Virus genome (UHGV): UHGV-0248180
DNA length: 37,455 nucleotides
Source: a virus
Reading direction: 5' to 3' (one strand)
A program made the position numbers and the translations under genes. Position 1 is the stretch's first letter; every line of letters starts with the position of its first letter. Of this stretch, positions 94 to 36,414 are shown in pieces. Under the pieces are notes generated by a model, which was not told the DNA's origin, searched no databases, and was given only the letters and a program-made list of their open reading frames with translations.

Positions 94-136
94 TCAACTA
101 TCAACTACTGATACAGAAAACAACTTGGAGAATGAA

Positions 137-400: not shown

Positions 401-469
401 TTGTGTACAAACACCAAGGACGGTGTTATTATAGACTTATCAAAACAAATACAGAAAACGGAGAAATAA

Positions 470-4135: not shown

Positions 4136-4172
4136 ATTCACAGTTACTAATTAAAATATTTAAAGGAAACAC

Positions 4173-4490
4173 ATGAAAACGTATAAAGAATTTATTGCAG
4201 AATCTGCTGCAGGACAACGTGTAGAAGGCGGTTATATCTGGATTGAACAAGTTGAGCCGCCAAGTCGCACTTCTACAGGTAAATGGAAAATCACTGTTGA
4301 TGGTCCTGGTGGTAAACGTAGGACTCTTAAAGAAATTAACGGGTACTATGAAGAAGCTCTTTCTGACGCGGGTACTTATATGATGCAAATCATGATTAAA
4401 AACCCAGAAAATCGTTTTGCGGCTAGAGTTTTCCGCCGTATTGGAAATAAGCTTTATGATGCATATTCTAAAAACTTCCCTAAAGAATAA
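4173..4490 (+). CDS. Capsid-targeted internal protein (105 aa) with N-terminal CTS MKTYKEFIAE
   Basis: N-terminal capsid targeting sequence typical of T-even internal proteins; located in the ip locus next to e. Confidence 0.75.
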   Translation: MKTYKEFIAESAAGQRVEGGYIWIEQVEPPSRTSTGKWKITVDGPGGKRRTLKEINGYYEEALSDAGTYMMQIMIKNPENRFAARVFRRIGNKLYDAYSKNFPKE

Positions 4491-4506
4491 AAATTAAAGG
4501 ATACAC

Positions 4507-4980
4507 ATGAAAACATATCAAGAATTTATTACTGAAGCAGCTATTAATTCTCAAATTATTGCTGAATCTTTTACTGATCTTTTGAAATTTAAAAAAGGAC
4601 AGAAAATCACTGCTGTATTGGATGACGGTACAGAAGTTGAGATGGATGTACAAGGATATAATTATGCAGTAGATGGAAAACTGTATAATAAATCTCATGC
4701 TAAATTTGATTCATTTGACGACTTTGTTAATACAGTTGAAGATGAAAAAACTCGTAGATCCATTGCAACGGGTGATGCTAAGGTTCTTATGGCACATGGC
4801 CATGAACGCATTCGCGCTAAGCAGAATAAAATGGGTGAAGATAATTTTGCATTAGTTGGTTATCAATCTGGTAAACAAACTTATGGTTATCAACGTACTG
4901 CTACCATGTATAACAAAAATGGTAAAATTGCCTTTGTGAATAGTAAAGGTTCTATTCAGTACGTCAAATCATTCAAATAA
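4507..4980 (+). CDS. Capsid-targeted internal protein (157 aa) with N-terminal CTS MKTYQEFITE
   Basis: CTS motif; leader and RBS nearly identical to the preceding ip gene. Confidence 0.75.
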   Translation: MKTYQEFITEAAINSQIIAESFTDLLKFKKGQKITAVLDDGTEVEMDVQGYNYAVDGKLYNKSHAKFDSFDDFVNTVEDEKTRRSIATGDAKVLMAHGHERIRAKQNKMGEDNFALVGYQSGKQTYGYQRTATMYNKNGKIAFVNSKGSIQYVKSFK

Positions 4981-7117: not shown

Positions 7118-7147
7118 GTTTACTTTTCCTCTTGACTGTGGTATAAT
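7118..7147 (+). promoter_or_regulatory. T4 early promoter upstream of regB (GTTTAC-N18-TGgTATAAT)
   Basis: GTTTAC 7118-7123; TG 7139-7140; TATAAT 7142-7147. Confidence 0.65.
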
Positions 7148-7174
7148 TTTTCTATCAGTTAAGAGGAGAATAAC

Positions 7175-11467: not shown

Positions 11468-11490
11468 AGTCTCCTTCGGGAGACTTTTTT
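11468..11490 (+). terminator. Rho-independent terminator (AGTCTCC-TTCG-GGAGACT + T6)
   Basis: 7-bp stem, UUCG loop, T tract. Confidence 0.8.
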
Positions 11491-11500
11491 CATTTTACCG

Positions 11501-11530
11501 GTTTACTTTCCGTCTGAGCCGTGGTACTAT
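11501..11530 (+). promoter_or_regulatory. T4 early promoter (GTTTAC-N18-TGgTACTAT)
   Basis: GTTTAC 11501-11506; TGg TACTAT 11522-11530. Confidence 0.65.
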
Positions 11531-11558
11531 ACAACCATCGGATAAAGAGGAGAACATC

Positions 11559-13026: not shown

Positions 13027-13548
13027 ATGTATATTTCAAGTGAAAGTGGTTTAATTCGTGTTGAATTTAAAAATGATATTTTCCTTATTCAAGGAGATGA
13101 TATTATTAAAATGAGTTATGACGAAATCAAGAAAATTTGTCATACTCTTGAAAGCCGTGGAAACGTAAATGCTGTTATTGATATTGGTGATTTATGGGTA
13201 ACGCTTTATAAAGTATCCGAAGGATTTAACATTGAAGATGAAAATAACATTTTAGCTATTGATAAAAGAACTGATTTGTTTGATGTATTAAAAGCCTATG
13301 AACAGTCAAACGGTGGAAGAAAAGCTGCATTGATTTATCAAAAACCGCATTCATGTGGAACTGCTTCAATCATTTCAAATATTGAAGACGAATCTGATAC
13401 TTATATGTGTGTTTTAAAAGCTGGTGGTGACCGTCATCCGGATTTTATTTCTATTCGTCAAAACAATGGAGAAATTTCATTATCAAAATCAGAAGCTGAA
13501 GCCATGATTAAGTATTTAACAACCGTTACGCCTTCAATGAAAGGATAA
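13027..13548 (+). CDS. hypothetical protein (173 aa), paralog of 12475 ORF
   Basis: ORF; shared C-terminal motif. Confidence 0.6.
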   Translation: MYISSESGLIRVEFKNDIFLIQGDDIIKMSYDEIKKICHTLESRGNVNAVIDIGDLWVTLYKVSEGFNIEDENNILAIDKRTDLFDVLKAYEQSNGGRKAALIYQKPHSCGTASIISNIEDESDTYMCVLKAGGDRHPDFISIRQNNGEISLSKSEAEAMIKYLTTVTPSMKG

Positions 13549-13550
13549 TT

Positions 13551-13997
13551 ATGATTATTAATGAAAACTCTTGGCACGTTCGTATGCATGATTTCTTTTA
13601 CTGGCAGCGTCCGAATTCTTTGTGTAAATATTTCTGGAAAATGGCGTGGACGTTCTTAGTTATCGGTGTTATTTGCATATCGGGGCTATTAGGTAGTTGG
13701 GTGGTAGGACAAGCCATTTTAAGCCAATTTGGCGTTACAGGATTCTGGCTTCTACACGCAGGCGGAACCTTATTTGGTGTACTGATATTTGCTACGATTG
13801 TCATTATTGCAGTAGGTATAGCATATATTATAGCTAAGATTTCAGGTTTATGGGAAGGAGTCAGGTATGATAGAGAGTGGAAGCGTCAACAAGACGAAGA
13901 AAATGGTATTGAACATCCTAAGAGTGTAATCGTTGAATACCTTAAAGCTAGTAAATCTAAAATCTGCCCTATGATAGAATTTAAGGATGTTAAATGA
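13551..13997 (+). CDS. hypothetical integral membrane protein (148 aa)
   Basis: ORF; long hydrophobic segments (WTFLVIGVICISGLLGSWVV... GTLFGVLIFATIVIIAVGIAYII). Confidence 0.6.
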   Translation: MIINENSWHVRMHDFFYWQRPNSLCKYFWKMAWTFLVIGVICISGLLGSWVVGQAILSQFGVTGFWLLHAGGTLFGVLIFATIVIIAVGIAYIIAKISGLWEGVRYDREWKRQQDEENGIEHPKSVIVEYLKASKSKICPMIEFKDVK

Positions 13998-15004
13998 AAA
14001 CAGTAATGAAAAGTTATTTTGGTAGTCATCTTTATGGAACTTCTACCCCAGAATCTGATGTAGATTTTAAAGAAATCTTTGTTCCTCCTGCTCGCGATAT
14101 TCTTATCGGAAATGTTAAAGAGCATATGAGTAAAAACACTAACAACACATCATCTAAAAACACTAAAGATGATATTGACCATGAACTATACAGTCTTAAG
14201 TATTTCTTTAAATTAGCAGCAGATGGTGAAACTGTAGCATTGGATATGCTCCACACTCCACCTGAACTTGTAGTTAAATCTGATTTGCCTGATGTATGGA
14301 AGTTTATTCAAGACAACCGTTCTCGTTTTTATACGACTAACATGAAATCATATTTAGGATATGTCCGCAAGCAAGCTTCTAAATACGGTGTCAAGGGTTC
14401 TCGTTTGGCTGCATTACGTGATGTATTGAAAGTAGTTAATCAAATCCCCGAGCAATGGGTTGATTACCAAGAAGACGGTTCCATTAAGCAGCGTCGCACT
14501 AAAGTTGAAGATATTAAGCATCGTCTTCCAGAAAACGAATTCTGTGAATGGGTATTCCATAATCATGAGAAAACCGGTCCACAAACGTTCTACACTGTGT
14601 TGGGTCGTAAATATCAGACAACACTTTCTCTTATTGAGCTTAAGCAGTCTTTGAATAAACTTGATGCCGAATACGGTGAACGTGCTCGTAAGGCTGAAGC
14701 GAATGAGGGCATTGACTGGAAAGCTCTGAGTCATGCTTGCCGTGGTGGACTCCAACTATTGGAAATTTACAAAACTGGTGACTTGGTTTATCCACTCAAA
14801 GATGCTCCATTTATTCTCGACGTGAAGTTGGGTAAACATCCATTTAAAACGGTTCAAGAGTTTTTGGAAGATGTGGTCGATCAAGTAGAAGCAGCATCTA
14901 CTGAAGCTTCTAAGAACGGTATGCAGCAAAAAGTAGACATGGGTTTCTGGGATGACTTCCTTGAGAAGGTCTATCTTGAAAACCACCGAAGTTATTATAA
15001 ATGA
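13994..15004 (+). CDS. Predicted nucleotidyltransferase (Pol-beta-like fold), 336 aa
   Basis: N-terminal signature GSHLYGTSTPESDVDF (GS-x10-DxD); ATGA overlap; followed by strong terminator. Confidence 0.7.
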   Translation: MKTVMKSYFGSHLYGTSTPESDVDFKEIFVPPARDILIGNVKEHMSKNTNNTSSKNTKDDIDHELYSLKYFFKLAADGETVALDMLHTPPELVVKSDLPDVWKFIQDNRSRFYTTNMKSYLGYVRKQASKYGVKGSRLAALRDVLKVVNQIPEQWVDYQEDGSIKQRRTKVEDIKHRLPENEFCEWVFHNHEKTGPQTFYTVLGRKYQTTLSLIELKQSLNKLDAEYGERARKAEANEGIDWKALSHACRGGLQLLEIYKTGDLVYPLKDAPFILDVKLGKHPFKTVQEFLEDVVDQVEAASTEASKNGMQQKVDMGFWDDFLEKVYLENHRSYYK

Positions 15005-15006
15005 TA

Positions 15007-15031
15007 GGGAGCCTTCGGGCTCCCTTTTTTT
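15007..15031 (+). terminator. Rho-independent terminator (GGGAGCC-TTCG-GGCTCCC + T7)
   Basis: Perfect 7-bp GC-rich stem, UUCG loop, T tract. Confidence 0.85.
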
Positions 15032-15055
15032 ATTTCAAAAATTTTTCACAAAACT

Positions 15056-15085
15056 GTTTACAAGCATAAAGCTTTATGGTACTAT
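15056..15085 (+). promoter_or_regulatory. T4 early promoter (GTTTAC-N18-TGgTACTAT) with conserved leader ACAACTATCAACT
   Basis: GTTTAC 15056-15061; TGg TACTAT 15077-15085. Confidence 0.65.
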
Positions 15086-15119
15086 ACAACTATCAACTGA
15101 TACGGATTTGGAGAATAAA

Positions 15120-16088
15120 ATGAAAACTGTAACTATTAATAAGGGTATCTATTTCGGTAAAGAAATCTCTGGAACTTTTGAGCTCTTAGGCGAATGGTTC
15201 CCAGATAATGCTCCGGTAGATGCACAAGGAGATGGTAAAGTTTTTGTTGAAATTGACGGTAAACGTCGCGGTGTTTGGGTTTACAAATCCGATATTTCAT
15301 ATGATGGTGTAAAAGTTGAAGAAGTTAAAGAATCATATGAAGATATGAAAACCCGCATTAATAAAAGATTTAATGTTATGGGAATGATGACGAATGGTAT
15401 TATTAACGGAAACATTCGTTCATTAATTATCTCTGGTGCGGCAGGTATTGGTAAAACGTATTCTTTAGATAAAGCTTTAAATAAAGCAAATGATGTTGGA
15501 TACATTGAGTATAAAAGCATTAATGGTAAAATCTCTGGTATCGGTCTTTATGAGCAGCTCTGGAATAATCGTGAAGAGAATTCTGTCCTTTTGATTGATG
15601 ATGTGGATGTTTTCTCTGATATGGACATTCTTAATCTTCTAAAAGCTGCTCTGGACACTGGAGAGACCCGTAAAGTCTGCTGGAGCACTGCATCTTCTTA
15701 CTTAGAAGAAAAAGGCATTGACCGTGAGTTTGAATTTAAAGGAACGATTGTTTTTATCACAAACGTTGACATTGACCGCGAATTAGATCGCGGAACTAAA
15801 CTTGCTCCACACCTACAAGCATTAGTGTCCCGCTCAGTTTATTTAGATTTAGGTGTTCACACTAATGAAGAAATTATGGTCAGGGTTGAAGATGTTATTC
15901 TTTCAACTGACATGATGCAAAAGCGTGGTCTTTCTGATGAAGAAACTTATAAAGCATTATCATGGATGAAAGTTAATGTTAATCGTTTACGCAATGTTTC
16001 ACTGCGTACTGCTCTTTATCTTGCTGACTTTATTATGACCGACAAAAACGGTTGGGAAGAAATCGCTGAGGTTACTCTTCTGAAATAA
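15120..16088 (+). CDS. Predicted AAA+-type P-loop ATPase (322 aa)
   Basis: Walker A GAAGIGKT, Walker B VLLIDDVD, sensor-like FITN; GGAG RBS; track start 14952 reads through the promoter. Confidence 0.7.
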   Translation: MKTVTINKGIYFGKEISGTFELLGEWFPDNAPVDAQGDGKVFVEIDGKRRGVWVYKSDISYDGVKVEEVKESYEDMKTRINKRFNVMGMMTNGIINGNIRSLIISGAAGIGKTYSLDKALNKANDVGYIEYKSINGKISGIGLYEQLWNNREENSVLLIDDVDVFSDMDILNLLKAALDTGETRKVCWSTASSYLEEKGIDREFEFKGTIVFITNVDIDRELDRGTKLAPHLQALVSRSVYLDLGVHTNEEIMVRVEDVILSTDMMQKRGLSDEETYKALSWMKVNVNRLRNVSLRTALYLADFIMTDKNGWEEIAEVTLLK

Positions 16089-16177
16089 TTCATAAGAGGA
16101 CTTCTATGACAAAAAGGCAGTTCAGAAATAGATTATATGGACTGCCATTAAAAAGATGACTAGAATTAAACTGGTGA

Positions 16178-16492
16178 ATGGAGGTAATGATGTTATACTC
16201 AAAGGCTCGTGAAATTTACGAAACTAAAATTAAAGAAGCAGTATTCCAGTTCGCAACGACAATGCGATGGACAAATGATTGGGAGTATTCAAAAAATCAT
16301 AAGAAGCCCATGGTGACAAGAAAGGCTCATATGTTAGTGTTAATAGACCGTGAGCAGATTAAAGCCCGAGAAGCCCTCCAGAATCATAAAAAGGCTGCCT
16401 TTGAATGGTTTATGGATAACACTGCTCCTGAGACTAAGAAAGCAGTGAGCGCTTGGTTCAGTGGAAAAAATTGTGAAAGAAGTTTCTTTTAG
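16178..16492 (+). CDS. hypothetical protein (~100 aa; start ambiguous among ATG 16178/16187/16190)
   Basis: ORF with GGAGG RBS. Confidence 0.5.
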   Translation: MEVMMLYSKAREIYETKIKEAVFQFATTMRWTNDWEYSKNHKKPMVTRKAHMLVLIDREQIKAREALQNHKKAAFEWFMDNTAPETKKAVSAWFSGKNCERSFF

Positions 16493-16494
16493 TT

Positions 16495-16524
16495 GTTTAC
16501 AAGACTGTTCCTCTGTGGTACTAT
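16495..16524 (+). promoter_or_regulatory. T4 early promoter (GTTTAC-N18-TGgTACTAT) with conserved leader ACAACTATCAACT
   Basis: GTTTAC 16495-16500; TGg TACTAT 16516-16524. Confidence 0.65.
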
Positions 16525-16552
16525 ACAACTATCAACTACGGAGGAACAGAAA

Positions 16553-17080
16553 ATGAATGCTAAAGATATTTTCAACCTGGTAAATTACAACGATGGTAAA
16601 TTTAAATCAGAAGCACAAAGCAAGTTCTTTAATGACATCTCAATCGGAGGTGAAATCACGGTTGATGGAGGACAGATTTACAAATCCCGTTGGAATTGGA
16701 TCGTTATTATTGATGAGATTGGTATTGTAGAAATTTACAAAAATACGAATAAAAATCGTACATTGCACTGGTCTCGTGATACTAACGAACAGTACAAAAA
16801 GGATAAAGCATCTAAATTATCTCGTGTAACTCAAGAAGATATTGAGTTTATCAAGAAAGATATTTTAATGTATGATAACTTAATTGCTGAAGAGCAAGCT
16901 GTTATTGATAAATTTGACGAGATTAAAGCTTCTCGTGAAATTCCTGATTTTATGAAAGAATCAGTAAATGAACGATACACTCTCATTTCAGAGCGTATTG
17001 AAACTTACAAAAAGCAAAGAGCTGAACGCCAAAATACTCTTCGGAAGTTTGAAGAACGGTTAAAGACGGTACTCGCATAA
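16553..17080 (+). CDS. hypothetical protein (175 aa) with C-terminal coiled-coil-like region
   Basis: ORF with GGAGGA RBS; track start 16493 reads through promoter. Confidence 0.6.
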   Translation: MNAKDIFNLVNYNDGKFKSEAQSKFFNDISIGGEITVDGGQIYKSRWNWIVIIDEIGIVEIYKNTNKNRTLHWSRDTNEQYKKDKASKLSRVTQEDIEFIKKDILMYDNLIAEEQAVIDKFDEIKASREIPDFMKESVNERYTLISERIETYKKQRAERQNTLRKFEERLKTVLA

Positions 17081-19469: not shown

Positions 19470-19498
19470 TTTACTTTGCCACAAGGATGTGGTATAAT
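19469..19498 (+). promoter_or_regulatory. T4 early promoter (GTTTAC-N18-TGgTATAAT)
   Basis: GTTTAC 19469-19474; TGg TATAAT 19490-19498. Confidence 0.65.
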
Positions 19499-22913: not shown

Positions 22914-23399
22914 ATGATTACAGTAGATAAGTGGTTTAGAATTAATCGTGTTGATACAGGGCTATGTAATTACTGGCCGGAACTTAGTGCAGGTACTGTC
23001 TTTAAAGTTCGTGAACTTACAAAAGAATGTGAAGATGATATAGAGCCTGATACTGGAATTATTGAAATTGAACTTTCCGACGGAAAGATTATTAACATCT
23101 ATGATAAGCCAATTACGTATTGGTGCTTGTGGAATGCTGAATCCGTTGAAAATGGCGAAATTGAAGAAGTTGTAGAGAGAACTAGCCAAGATGTTCAGAA
23201 GCCTAAAGCCGCTTTTCAAGGTGAACGTATTTCATATGCATTAGCTAAAGTGGCATTGAAAAAAGATATTGATGATTATGAAGGTAACCTGATGCAAGCT
23301 GCGGCAGAATATATTGAATGGCTTGAAACACAAAATTCTTTTTCTGACCAAATGATTCGGCAATATAAGCGATTGCATCAAATGTTTTATAATACTTGA
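22914..23399 (+). CDS. pin: Pin, inhibitor of host Lon protease (161 aa)
   Basis: Synteny nrdC-pin-49 and 161-aa size as in T4; GGAG RBS before ATG 22914 (track start 22896 is TTG). Confidence 0.8.
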   Translation: MITVDKWFRINRVDTGLCNYWPELSAGTVFKVRELTKECEDDIEPDTGIIEIELSDGKIINIYDKPITYWCLWNAESVENGEIEEVVERTSQDVQKPKAAFQGERISYALAKVALKKDIDDYEGNLMQAAAEYIEWLETQNSFSDQMIRQYKRLHQMFYNT

Positions 23400-23435
23400 A
23401 AAAACTCAAAATTCTTTTTCTGACAAGGCATTTTA

Positions 23436-27814: not shown

Positions 27815-28015
27815 ATGAATCCTGAATCTAAATTATCGCAGCGAATTGCTGAAGAACGCGCCAAATTTTTCCAGAACATGAAACACAATGGTATTGAGGA
27901 TGAAGTTTTTCTAAATTGGTTCTGGAATAATAAGTATGCAGCATGTGAAGGAGCTTTGTCATTGTCAGTCGCAATGATGTACGAAGGCTGGAAGGGTGCC
28001 AAAAAGTTTAGCTAA
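27815..28015 (+). CDS. hypothetical protein (66 aa)
   Basis: ORF; followed by terminator. Confidence 0.45.
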   Translation: MNPESKLSQRIAEERAKFFQNMKHNGIEDEVFLNWFWNNKYAACEGALSLSVAMMYEGWKGAKKFS

Positions 28016-28017
28016 GG

Positions 28018-28037
28018 GCTTCGGCCCTTTTTGGATA
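28018..28037 (+). terminator. Rho-independent terminator (AAGGGC-TTCG-GCCCTT + T tract)
   Basis: UUCG hairpin and T5. Confidence 0.7.
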
Positions 28038-30450: not shown

Positions 30451-31653
30451 ATGAAAGTATGCATTTTTATGGCTCGAGGTCTTGAAGGTTGCGGTGTAAC
30501 TAAATTTTCTCTTGAGCAACGTGATTGGTTTATTAAAAATGGTCATGAAGTGACTTTGGTTTATGCTAAAGATAAATCATTTACTCGTAATTGCGCGCAT
30601 GATTATAAATCATTTTCAATTCCGGTTTTATTGGCAAAAGAATACGATAAAACACTTAAGCTGGTAAATGATTGTGATATTCTAATTATCAATTCAGTTC
30701 CTGCTACTTCGGTTGAAGAAGACACTATTAATAACTATAAAAAAATTATTGATAACATTAAACCTTCTGTTCGTGTTGTAGTTTATCAGCATGACCATTC
30801 TTCTCTTTCTTTGCGTCGAAATTTGGGATTAGAAGAAACTGTTCGTCGAGCTGATGTTATTTTTAGTCATTCTGATAATGGTGATTTTAATAAAGTTCTG
30901 ATGAAAGAATGGTATCCAGAAACTGTTTCTCTGTTTGATGATATTGAAGAAGCACCGACAGTATATAACTTTCAGCCTCCTATGGATATTGCGAAGGTTC
31001 GGTCAACTTACTGGAAAGATGTTTCTGAAATTAACATGAATATCAACCGTTGGATTGGTCGTACGACTACATGGAAAGGTTTTTATCAGATGTTTGATTT
31101 TCACGAAAAACATCTTAAACCTGCAGGACTAAGTACTATTATGGAAGGTCTGGAACGTTCTCCAGCGTTCATTCCTATTAAAGAAAAAGGAATTCCATAC
31201 GAGTATTATCGTCTTCATCAAGTAGACCAAATTAAAATTGCTCCTAATTTGCCAACACAAATTCTTGACCGTTATGTAAATAGCGAAATGCTTGAACGCA
31301 TGAGTAAATCCGGTTTTGGTTATCAGCTGAGTAAGTTGGATAAAAAATATCTACAGCGCTCTTTAGAATATACTCATCTCGAGCTTGGTGCATGTGGAAC
31401 AATTCCAGTATTTTGGAAATCTACTGGCGAAAATTTAAAATTCCGTGTTGATAATACTCCTTTGACCTCGCATGATAGCGGTATCATTTGGTTTGATGAA
31501 AATGATATGGAATCAACATTTGAACGTATTAAAGAACTGTCATCTGACCGAACTCTTTATGACCGCGAACGTGAAAAAGCTTATGAATTTTTGTATCAGC
31601 ATCAAGATTCAAGCTTCTGCTTTAAAGAACAGTTTGACATTATTACAAAATAA
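30451..31653 (+). CDS. a-gt: DNA alpha-glucosyltransferase (400 aa)
   Basis: Translation matches T4 alpha-glucosyltransferase from memory (400 aa). Confidence 0.93.
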   Translation: MKVCIFMARGLEGCGVTKFSLEQRDWFIKNGHEVTLVYAKDKSFTRNCAHDYKSFSIPVLLAKEYDKTLKLVNDCDILIINSVPATSVEEDTINNYKKIIDNIKPSVRVVVYQHDHSSLSLRRNLGLEETVRRADVIFSHSDNGDFNKVLMKEWYPETVSLFDDIEEAPTVYNFQPPMDIAKVRSTYWKDVSEINMNINRWIGRTTTWKGFYQMFDFHEKHLKPAGLSTIMEGLERSPAFIPIKEKGIPYEYYRLHQVDQIKIAPNLPTQILDRYVNSEMLERMSKSGFGYQLSKLDKKYLQRSLEYTHLELGACGTIPVFWKSTGENLKFRVDNTPLTSHDSGIIWFDENDMESTFERIKELSSDRTLYDREREKAYEFLYQHQDSSFCFKEQFDIITK

Positions 31654-31669
31654 AGGGCTTCGGCCCTTT
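31652..31669 (+). terminator. UUCG-tetraloop hairpin (AAAGGGC-TTCG-GCCCTTT)
   Basis: Same 18-mer recurs at 36362-36379. Confidence 0.5.
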
Positions 31670-31692
31670 AGCTTTATACGGAGTTTGATATA

Positions 31693-35673: not shown

Positions 35674-36360
35674 ATGAAACTGTCTAAAGATACTACTGCT
35701 CTGCTTAAAAATTTCGCTACTATTAACTCTGGTATTATGCTTAAATCCGGTCAATTTATTATGACTCGCGCAGTTAATGGTACAACTTATGCGGAAGCAA
35801 ATATTTCTGACGTTATTGATTTTGATGTAGCAATTTACGATTTGAACGGTTTTCTCGGTATTCTGTCTCTAGTTAATGATGATGCAGAAATTTCCCAGTC
35901 AGAAGATGGAAATATTAAAATTGCTGATGCTCGTTCAACAATTTTTTGGCCAGCAGCCGATCCGAGTACAGTAGTTGCTCCTAATAAACCAATTCCATTC
36001 CCGGTAGCATCTGTTGTTACTGAAATTAAAGCTGAAGACCTTCAACAACTGTTACGTGTATCTCGTGGTCTGCAAATTGATACAATTGCTATCACAGTAA
36101 AAGAAGGTAAAATCGTAATTAACGGTTTTAATAAAGTAGAAGATTCTGCTCTGACCCGTGTTAAATATTCTTTGACTCTTGGTGATTATGATGGTGAAAA
36201 TACATTTAATTTCATTATCAATATGGCAAATATGAAAATGCAACCAGGAAATTATAAACTTCTGCTCTGGGCAAAAGGTAAACAAGGTGCTGCTAAATTT
36301 GAAGGTGAACACGCGAATTATGTAGTAGCTCTTGAAGCTGATTCTACCCACGATTTTTAA
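35674..36360 (+). CDS. 45: gp45 sliding clamp (228 aa)
   Basis: Translation matches T4 gp45 from memory. Confidence 0.97.
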   Translation: MKLSKDTTALLKNFATINSGIMLKSGQFIMTRAVNGTTYAEANISDVIDFDVAIYDLNGFLGILSLVNDDAEISQSEDGNIKIADARSTIFWPAADPSTVVAPNKPIPFPVASVVTEIKAEDLQQLLRVSRGLQIDTIAITVKEGKIVINGFNKVEDSALTRVKYSLTLGDYDGENTFNFIINMANMKMQPGNYKLLLWAKGKQGAAKFEGEHANYVVALEADSTHDF

Positions 36361-36361
36361 T

Positions 36362-36379
36362 AAAGGGCTTCGGCCCTTT
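36362..36379 (+). terminator. UUCG-tetraloop hairpin (AAAGGGC-TTCG-GCCCTTT), weak T tract; possibly an mRNA stability element
   Basis: Identical to hairpin at 31652-31669. Confidence 0.45.
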
Positions 36380-36414
36380 AATTGTAAATTTAATGAAATT
36401 TGAATGAGGAAATT

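Follow-up and report, generated by a model that had tools for sequence, protein, structure and literature searches.

The 13-mer ACAACTATCAACT, which occurs twice in the stretch of viral DNA analysed here (UHGV virus genome UHGV-0248180, 37,455 nucleotides, referred to below as the window), probably represents positions -6 to +7 of T4-type early promoters used by the host sigma-70 RNA polymerase, and would be held by selection together with cassette recombination. We put the probability of this reading at about 0.6. Judged by sequence comparison, the window is the early region of a T4-like (Tequatrovirus) phage, with 97-98% identity to Tequatrovirus genomes over the nrdC region and the T4 gene order from e.8 to gene 44. 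The repeat itself is real and non-random, yet it is ordinary, because it would correspond to -6 to +7 of well-known T4-type early promoter cassettes.

An earlier note on this DNA had claimed that the early promoters at 15056 and 16495 are followed by an identical 13-mer right after the -10 element, and this observation is confirmed, except that the shared block is longer. Exactly two exact matches to ACAACTATCAACT are present on the + strand of the window, at 15086-15098 and 16525-16537, against 0.00 expected from 100 dinucleotide shuffles of the window, and with up to two mismatches there are 4 against 1.47 expected, a non-significant excess. The extended -10 TGGTACTAT (TGG + TACTAT) lies immediately 5' of both copies, with TACTAT 17 bp after TTTACA. 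The two sites are identical over 22 nt (15077-15098 and 16516-16537), with the sequence TGGTACTATACAACTATCAACT. The 44-nt promoters at 15056 and 16495 are 82% identical and constitute the largest direct-repeat family within the window, and the 13-mer contains no G. The features of the two sites are as follows.

15006..15032, + strand: intrinsic terminator hairpin and T-run at the end of the nrdC.11 orthologue (8-bp stem with 6 G-C pairs, then TTTTTTTATTT)
15033..15055, + strand: A/T-rich UP-element-like block TTTCAAAAATTTTTCACAAAACT, kept among cassette copies
15056..15061, + strand: -35 GTTTAC of the nrdC.10 early promoter, orthologous to the T4 promoter with its -10 end at T4 coordinate 55355
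15077..15085, + strand: extended -10 of the nrdC.10 promoter, TGG + TACTAT (TACTAT at 15080-15085)
15086..15098, + strand: 13-mer ACAACTATCAACT, -6 to +7 of the nrdC.10 promoter, with the start probably at A15092 by spacing
15110..15120, + strand: SD GGAG within GGAGAATAAAA, a perfect RegB/S1 consensus match; ATG of the nrdC.10 orthologue at 15120
16495..16500, + strand: -35 GTTTAC of the nrdC.8 early promoter, orthologous to the T4 promoter with its -10 end at T4 coordinate 53914
16505..16549, + strand: 15-bp hairpin, possible in read-through RNA only (-23.2 kcal/mol, z = -5.96, 0/200 shuffles as stable)
16516..16524, + strand: extended -10 of the nrdC.8 promoter, TGG + TACTAT (TACTAT at 16519-16524)
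16525..16537, + strand: 13-mer ACAACTATCAACT, -6 to +7 of the nrdC.8 promoter, with the start probably at A16531 by spacing
16540..16544, + strand: SD GGAGG of nrdC.8, whose ATG is at 16553

Both sites show GTTTAC (TTTACA for TTGACA), a 17-bp spacer and TAnnnT, with TGG abutting TACTAT. An A/T-rich UP-like region occupies -40 to -60, with AAAAATTTTTCACAAAAC 5' of 15056 and GAAAGAAGTTTCTTTTAGTT 5' of 16495; in the T4 profile, A stands at -40 in 90% of promoters, with which the UP-like regions of both sites agree, and the UP-like block TTTCACAAAACNGTTTAC is present at 6 T4 cassettes as well as in other genera. Near-identical sequence is located 5' of T4 nrdC.10 and nrdC.8, which are early-strand genes with an SD. 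No essential difference separates the window promoters from the T4 early promoters, which belong to the same phage group, include their orthologues (T4 nrdC.10 and nrdC.8) and share the same anatomy of UP block, GTTTAC, 17-bp spacer, TGn and TAnnnT. T4 early promoters with an extended consensus were reportedly described by Liebig and Rueger in 1989 and by Miller et al. in 2003.

The start coordinates of three T4 early promoters, Pe35.3, Pe40.4 and Pe148.6, have been given (PMC6024815), and a 7-nt spacing from the -10 to the start was calibrated on them. By this spacing, the transcripts would begin at A15092 and A16531, that is, at the seventh base of the 13-mer, and therefore the leader RNA would carry ATCAACT only, the other six of the 13 nt being untranscribed promoter DNA. 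The description of the block as a 13-nt 5' leader thus stands as to the repeat and falls as to its length, since the last 7 nt alone are expected in RNA. Aligned from -6 to +7, 40 candidate T4 early promoters (a few being pattern false positives) give the 13-mer as their consensus, and their information profile displays a secondary conserved block from -3 to +8, with about 0.1 bit per position in the spacer. C-2 and T-1, which would lie outside the RNA, are among the best-conserved positions, and the motif is still present in 27 T4 promoters outside the exact-copy subfamily. It has been noted that T4 early promoters contain 'additional regions of consensus' besides UP, -35, TGn and -10 (PMC2988021); the start-site block is neither spelled out nor given a function in the accessible reviews, and a literature search with the motif sequence itself returned unrelated primer sequences only.

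The earlier note had proposed to check the enrichment of the 13-mer relative to -10 elements genome-wide, and this check was run on the T4 genome. All six T4 copies are on the early strand and at offset 0 after the TGGTACTAT of early-type promoters, 5' of ndd.6, motA, e.8, nrdC.10, nrdC.8 and imm.1, compared with 0 copies in Markov-random genomes. Over the whole T4 genome the 13-mer is found nowhere else in transcripts and is confined to promoters. In addition, CTATCAAC occurs 17 times in T4 against about 6 expected, 9 of them at an offset of exactly 4.

The conservation extends to other genera, where loci were chosen only by the sequence 5' of the motif. In JS98, Serratia phage Muldoon, Aeromonas phage 44RR2.8t and Acinetobacter phage Acj61, early-type promoters carry the core YYATCAAM (-2 to +6) at an identical offset; JS98 has AGACCTATCAACT at the motif position, and the other three have C(T/C)ATCAA. 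Among 113 distinct promoter-pattern segments with a gene start following, ATCA is found at +1 to +4 in 47% and at any other offset in no more than 3%, compared with 0% among 50 controls; this fixed-offset cross-genus statistic is our own count and not taken from the literature. The motif accompanies 46/64 TACTAT promoters versus 18/81 promoters with another -10, an association that could reflect co-adaptation but equally shared ancestry. The motif is missing from many candidate T4 early promoters, for instance from the candidate at 19470 of the window, with TATAAT + GTTCTTACTTTCT. Therefore, the exact 13-mer is dispensable for an early-type promoter.

Based on these features, ACAACT would be the gap from the -10 (TACTAT) to the start, A the start nucleotide and TCAACT positions +2 to +7, and the exact copies would form one subfamily of a dispersed promoter-leader cassette. 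The cassette would run in the order of terminator or T-run, A/T-rich UP block, GTTTAC, 15 variable nt, TGGTACTAT, 13-mer, short leader, GGAG ribosome-binding site and ATG. The start-site core YYATCAAM may be under selection, chiefly as DNA: it would fix the start at the A seven bases past the -10 and provide a G-free, unstructured initial transcribed region favouring strong initiation and promoter escape. The accessible literature yielded no report that -6 to +7 influences initiation or escape. Conserved initially transcribed regions have reportedly been described by Gentz and Bujard in 1985 and Kammerer et al. in 1986 for the strong early promoters of coliphage T5, such as PN25. These are likewise strong host-sigma-70 phage promoters conserved past +1, whose transcribed region is said to act on late initiation steps, and they may serve as a working analogy for how the T4-type block acts, although they have another sequence and belong to another phage.

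The second component of the proposed explanation is recombination. A 96-nt cassette query matched 3399 places, or about 6 per genome, in 551 records that are mostly of Tequatrovirus. The cassettes are mosaic, with pairwise exact runs from -55 to +3 for frd.3/nrdC.10, from -15 to +28 for ndd.6/imm.1 and from -25 to +15 for e.8/imm.1, which would be due to frequent recombination between the copies. In the six exact T4 copies, the block from -15 to +7, the segment exactly common to all of them, is 100% identical, the 15-nt spacer between -35 and -10 is 40% identical and +8 to +20 is 50% identical. Different 2-ORF modules are inserted at the nrdC.10 cassette in vB_SsoM_113 and BW-1, with junctions in the SD-ATG segment or the terminator/UP segment, and in other phages the same promoter halves are joined to other leaders and to genes without a T4 homologue; in two cases of promoter halves driving non-T4 genes, the homology ends after +5. 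Consequently, cassette duplication and recombination are supported as the origin of the copies by the dispersed family, the mosaic cassettes and the module insertions in relatives, which upholds the second half of the two-way interpretation offered earlier (factor site or cassette duplication) and leaves that interpretation partly supported. Duplication alone is insufficient, because the 22-nt block has stayed invariant and the 15-nt spacer has fallen to 40% identity. Against the proposed explanation, none of 675 records covers at least 80% of a chimeric junction query for natural deletion by recombination between the two window copies. The 64% match of ECp13 to this query is probably a mere extension through the mismatched spacer of an ordinary nrdC.8 promoter.

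Such recombining cassettes would therefore also offer stretches of homology through which gene modules move, in line with the PeSL model (Arbiol et al. 2010, PMC2839356; Comeau et al. 2014, PMC4122927). PeSL cassettes span the stem-loop to the start codon, and their mapped crossovers fall in the segment from the -10 to the SD or ATG (PMC2839356, PMC4122927), which is where the window 13-mer sits, and T4 recombination uses microhomologies of 6-10 bp (PMC9391042). As in PeSL, the regions are hyperplastic and lie beside indels, the AT-rich region, early promoter, SD and start codon form one conserved unit, insertions or replacements between close relatives have their junctions within the cassette, and module insertions are carried by the nrdC.10 cassette of relatives. 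A stem-loop just 5' of the promoter is present at nrdC.10 (15006-15025 plus T-run) and at 11468-11485; the terminator at 15006..15032 is the upstream stem-loop of the PeSL-type cassette at nrdC.10. The nrdC.8 copy differs in being without an upstream terminator stem-loop, and instead the hairpin at 16505..16549 spans the promoter. In its stem, the promoter spacer would pair with ACT + ACGGAGGAACAG, so that the nrdC.8 SD is hidden, and its loop would contain the -10 and most of the 13-mer. As a proxy for the mini-circles that PeSL cassettes would form when flanking copies recombine, the chimeric junction query likewise gave no natural deletion between the two window copies.

Three further places in the window carry related sequences.

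95..106, + strand: truncated e.8 early promoter cassette, CAACTATCAACT; the T4 orthologue has its -10 end at 70667
402..445, + strand: early-type promoter with GTGTAC, TGTTATTAT and AGACTTATCAAAA with start-site core CTTATCAA; third member of repeat family D1
11501..11543, + strand: early promoter of the mobD.5 orthologue, with GTTTAC, 15 nt, TGGTACTAT and ACAACCATCGGAT; the T4 orthologue has its -10 end at 58751

The partial copy reported 3' of the 11501 promoter is indeed there, as ACAACCATCGGAT at 11531-11543 with 9/13 positions matching. The near copy at 94-106 exists too, but it does not begin a spacer as had been described. The single mismatch, T94, belongs to an inverted duplication of 94 nt and is its final base. 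This duplication (1-94, the reverse complement of 136-229) occupies the place of the e.8 promoter, and therefore this copy is a truncated e.8 cassette. The 94-nt inverted duplication, probably an artefact of the assembly, was found in 0/527 records of related phages.

Then, could the identity of the copies be neutral? The 13-mer may be functionless, hitch-hiking on recent copying or gene conversion in a highly recombinogenic phage, which we regard as unlikely. The mosaic cassettes swapping segments, the roughly six cassette places per genome in 551 records, and T4 recombination at very short homologies (PMC9391042) are in line with this idea, as are the existence of motif-less candidate early promoters and the strong tie of the motif to one -10 variant. 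However, the 15-nt spacer, flanked on both sides by an invariant block, has diverged to 40% identity, and therefore the copies are not recent whole-cassette duplicates. Moreover, YYATCAAM keeps a constant offset between differing flanks (ACAA, AGAC, TACC, TGTC) in Escherichia, Serratia, Aeromonas and Acinetobacter phages, and 22% of the promoters that have a different -10 hexamer contain the core, compared with about 0.6% by base composition according to our estimate. Gene conversion may account for more of the 100% identity of the six copies than selection does.

Alternatively, the signal could be read in RNA, the 5'-terminal AUCAAC(U) (5'-ppp-AUCAACUACUGAUAC) setting stability or translation through a host or phage factor, for which a 5'-end-dependent nuclease or pyrophosphohydrolase, S1 or the ribosome, and a phage early-mRNA factor are candidates. 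The motif would be at the extreme RNA 5' end because of its fixed distance from the -10, that offset is kept in about 47% of early-type promoters of several genera, and the primary leaders, that is, RNAs beginning at the predicted start, are unstructured (MFE 0). RegB/S1 cleavage of motA RNA is also faster with sequences 5' of GGAG, although these are not required (PMC1702504). Among the T4 leaders that carry the 13-mer is that of motA. Nevertheless, only 7/13 nt are predicted to be RNA, the other 6/13 and with them the conserved C-2 and T-1 being untranscribed by spacing, the motif is absent at other positions of T4 transcripts, and about half of early promoters lack it. RegB cuts GGAG with its determinants 3' of the cut motif, GGAGRAYARAA (PMC3014915), no specific upstream information is needed, and motA RNA truncated to begin at GGAG is still cleaved (PMC1702504). 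The RegB/S1 target (Durand et al. 2006, PMC1702504; Uzan and Miller 2010, PMC3014915) is a nuclease site in the same leaders, where GGAGAATAAAA is a perfect match; it lies, however, 12 nt 3' of the window 13-mer, which is G-free and does not conform to GGA(G/U) + RAYARAA, a pattern present only downstream, at 15110-15120. A search of the whole window with Rfam covariance models at gathering score gave 0 matches, which rules out a known RNA family. Consequently, the earlier suggestion of a site for an RNA-binding factor or nuclease is unsupported, and we consider an RNA-level signal of any such kind doubtful.

It is very improbable that the double-stranded motif is an operator, on which a phage or host DNA-binding protein shuts off or modulates some of the early promoters. 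The motif covers the start, the usual repressor position, and is restricted to promoters, it forms a tandem heptad CAACTAT-CAACTAC when AC follows the 13-mer (the 16525 copy and most T4 copies), and the mechanism of early-promoter shut-off has been stated as unknown (PMC2988021, PMC3014915). However, it is present in part of the early promoters only and without dyad symmetry, other genera keep YYATCAAM alone without the tandem heptad, and neither a candidate binding protein nor an experimental hint was found.

Some other candidates were rejected. A 5'-terminal hairpin TATCA...TGATA in the primary transcript is dismissed because the leaders fold at MFE 0 and the nrdC.8 copy is without the 3' arm. 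A sigma-dependent pause element (AACTAT resembling a -10) was set aside because its position, -4 to +2, would overlap the start and lie outside the transcribed region. C at -2 and T at +2 of the 13-mer promoters do not fit the reported NAD-capping consensus. A NAD-cap-favouring start is also rejected on the T at -1, whereas a T4 NAD-cap preprint reports a purine as favouring.

Returning to the preferred reading, a promoter segment held by selection and cassette recombination, the feature is already known, and the biological gain is little: both sites have T4 early promoters at the orthologous positions, and cassettes of this kind have been published. The point of interest is the conservation of the bases around the start across genera without an assigned function. 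There is a slim chance that YYATCAAM, at a fixed offset in roughly 40-45% of T4-like early-type promoters of Escherichia, Serratia, Aeromonas and Acinetobacter phages, is a dedicated, uncharacterised element. If so, it might make up for the non-consensus TACTAT by contacting host RNA polymerase in the manner of an initiator. It might also be an operator or a 5'-terminal AUCAA tag through which a phage factor singles out some of the immediate-early promoters or transcripts, for instance in shutting off early transcription, a step as yet unexplained. In annotating T4-like genomes, one early-promoter subfamily can be recognised reliably by the 13-mer or, better still, by the 22-mer TGGTACTATACAACTATCAACT, which also points to likely recombination joints and to break points in assemblies.

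The 13-mer ACAACTATCAACT has two exact matches in the 37,455-nt window, both on the + strand, while none is expected in dinucleotide-preserving shuffles. Both are directly preceded by TACTAT, with TGG before it and TTTACA 17 bp upstream, and the block identical at both sites is 22 nt long (TGGTACTATACAACTATCAACT), longer than the 13-mer itself. When two mismatches are allowed, 4 copies are found against 1.47 expected, which is not significant, so it is the exact copies that carry the signal. The copies and the related repeats are as follows.

15086-15098, + strand: exact copy, at the orthologue of the T4 promoter upstream of nrdC.10
16525-16537, + strand: exact copy, at the orthologue of the T4 promoter upstream of nrdC.8
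11531-11543: partial copy ACAACCATCGGAT, after the promoter at 11501
94-106: near copy with one mismatch
402-445: weaker third member of the 44-nt promoter repeat family
1-94: reverse complement of 136-229, a 94-nt inverted duplication at the 5' end of the window

The earlier note had described the identical pair directly after the -10 elements, the partial copy and the near copy, all of which are present. The 44-nt promoter pair (82% identical) forms the largest direct-repeat family of the window. As for the near copy, its single mismatch, T94, is the final base of the perfect inverted duplication, which takes the place of the e.8 early promoter, the junction being the first base of its 13-mer copy. 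This duplication is absent from 527 related phage records, whose alignments start at 92-95, and is probably a fold-back artefact at the contig end. Consequently, the copy at 94-106 is the stump of another promoter cassette.

Other repeats were also found. Identical 22-nt terminator-like stems (AATAAAGGGCTTCGGCCCTTTA) lie at 31649-31670 and 36359-36380, each after a different gene, with diverged copies at 28010-28031 and 1285-1306. A 54-nt direct repeat (83% identical, 4155-4208 and 4489-4542) spans the Shine-Dalgarno sequence (SD), the ATG and the opening codons of two small neighbouring genes located 3' of the lysozyme gene; these correspond to the conserved starts of the T4 internal-protein genes. 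A 23-nt direct repeat (96% identical, 23326-23348 and 23402-23424, 76-nt spacing) precedes the gene 49 orthologue.

Many Tequatrovirus (T4-like) genomes match the window at 97-98% identity, and the window's + strand corresponds to the T4 early strand from e.8 to gene 44. Between mobD.1 and nrdC.11, in place of the homing-endonuclease gene mobD of T4, lie two ORFs (173 and 148 aa; 13027-13997). In the complete T4 genome, reassembled from four stretches, the exact 13-mer occurs six times, always on the early strand and directly behind (offset 0) the TGGTACTAT of an early-type promoter (downstream genes ndd.6, motA, e.8, nrdC.10, nrdC.8 and imm.1), while Markov-random genomes contain no copy. For the 8-mer core CTATCAAC the count is 17, where about 6 would be expected, and in 9 cases it follows a -10 at an offset of exactly 4. 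The genome-wide enrichment downstream of promoters, which the earlier note had named as its own check, is thus observed, and the repetition is far from chance.

To what part of the promoter does the 13-mer correspond? We aligned 40 candidate T4 early promoters, a few of which are pattern false positives, on the -10. Apart from the UP block and the GTTTAC, TGn and TAnnnT elements, the profile has a secondary block of conservation spanning -3 to +8 (0.2-0.6 bit per position, against about 0.1 bit in the spacer), and the 13-mer is the consensus of -6 to +7. The T-A-T-C-A-A motif persists in the 27 promoters outside the 13-mer subfamily. Three published T4 early start coordinates, 35,662, 41,225 and 150,727 (PMC6024815), each fall 7 nt past the last -10 base found by our scan; by this spacing, we infer starts at A15092 and A16531. 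Only ATCAACT would then be transcribed, while ACAACT would lie between the -10 and the start. The repeated block stands, a leader of 13 nt would overstate its RNA part, and the 13-mer is really the stretch from -6 to +7 in T4-type early promoters, whose extended consensus has been noted before (PMC2988021).

The start-site core extends beyond T4. Loci were drawn from a viral contig collection by upstream-only patterns (either the UP/-35 block or a -35 with TGnTACTAT), and searches confirmed the identity of the four phages. The sequence following the -10 is AGACCTATCAACT in Escherichia phage JS98, T(T/A)nnC(T/C)ATCAAC in Serratia phage Muldoon and CTTATCAAC in Acinetobacter phage Acj61; in Aeromonas phage 44RR2.8t, two of the three promoters sampled have CCATCAAAT. 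Of 113 distinct promoter-pattern segments with a gene start after them, 47% have ATCA at +1 to +4 and at most 3% have it at any other given offset, against 0% in 50 control segments with no gene start. The association of the motif with the TACTAT -10 is strong but incomplete (46/64 promoters, against 18/81 with other hexamers). The lineage-specific part is thus -6 to -3 (ACAA, AGAC, TACC, TGTC), and the broadly conserved part is YYATCAAM, which straddles the start from -2 to +6.

Could the repetition merely reflect cassette duplication, as the earlier note had also suggested? The six exact T4 copies were compared by segment.

Mean pairwise identity among the six exact T4 copies
-15 to +7 block: 100%
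UP block: 65%
+8 to +20: 50%
15-nt spacer, GTTTAC to TGG: 40%

Since these identities differ sharply, the copies are not recent whole-cassette duplicates. Pairwise exact runs show that the copies are mosaic: they extend from -55 to +3 (frd.3/nrdC.10 copies), -15 to +28 (ndd.6/imm.1) and -25 to +15 (e.8/imm.1).

The 96-nt cassette around 15086 was found 3399 times across 551 phage records, nearly all of them Tequatrovirus, which makes about 6 per genome. When window 15000-15125 was compared with loci of two close relatives, vB_SsoM_113 (L183:1190-1810) and BW-1 (L184:1190-1955), different two-ORF modules were found inserted exactly at the nrdC.10 cassette. In vB_SsoM_113 the module lies 3' of the cassette, and the GGAGAATAAAATGAAAACT junction before nrdC.10 is re-formed by a second early promoter; in BW-1 a promoter-ORFs-terminator module lies 5' and is joined within the repeated T-run/UP stretch. 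For the BW-1 ORFs the annotation reads RNA polymerase ADP-ribosylase fragments. In loci L037 and L046 (IMGVR_UViG_3300045988_128797), motA-type and nrdC.10-type promoter halves, spacers included, are joined after +5 to other leaders; the three ORFs read, those after the L046, L028 and L009 cassettes, have no T4 homologue by tblastn. These insertions and leader swaps match the published behaviour of promoter-early stem-loop (PeSL) cassettes, which comprise a stem-loop, AT-rich region, early promoter (TTTACW N17 TAYWAT in the PST/T4 pair), SD and start codon, and whose mapped crossovers fall in the interval from the -10 to the SD or ATG (PMC4122927; PMC2839356). T4 recombines at 6-10 bp microhomologies (PMC9391042), so the 22-nt block is ample homology; no natural deletion joining both window copies was found among 675 records.

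Part of the spacer variation between copies can be explained by complementarity to the downstream ribosome-binding site. At the nrdC.8 copy, read-through RNA is predicted to pair the promoter spacer with the ribosome-binding region of the downstream gene in a hairpin of 15 bp (16505-16549, -23.2 kcal/mol, z = -5.96), while RNA begun at the local promoter folds as unstructured. The regB promoter at 7119 behaves likewise (7124-7170, z = -5.0), and a weaker spacer-RBS hairpin is predicted at 11507-11553; folding gave no such hairpin for the nrdC.10 copy. The -10 and start-site motif lie in the loop of the predicted hairpins, in which the SD would be buried.

For the role of the start-site core, the less likely readings are neutral gene conversion, a 5'-terminal RNA signal and an operator. 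Recognition of AUCAAC specifically at the 5' end is improbable, since nothing points to it; that -2 and -1, although untranscribed, are conserved favours a role at the DNA level. A site for an RNA-binding factor or nuclease is not supported: the early-leader nuclease RegB cuts GGAG with determinants 3' of the cut (GGAGRAYARAA; PMC3014915), the 13-mer has no G, and no Rfam family matched in the window. A perfect match to this RegB/S1 consensus, GGAGAATAAAA at 15110-15120, lies at the nrdC.10 ribosome-binding site 12 nt downstream of the 13-mer. RegB still cuts a motA RNA shortened to begin at GGAG (PMC1702504), and the T4 motA leader is among those bearing the 13-mer.

Because the extended consensus and the mobile-cassette idea are both published, the feature is already known. 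The repetition reflects both a family of promoter-leader cassettes that is dispersed and recombines, and a motif at the start site that is conserved among T4-like genera. In the preferred reading, the start-site core would set the choice of start site and provide a G-free, unstructured initial transcribed region, which would favour strong initiation and escape.
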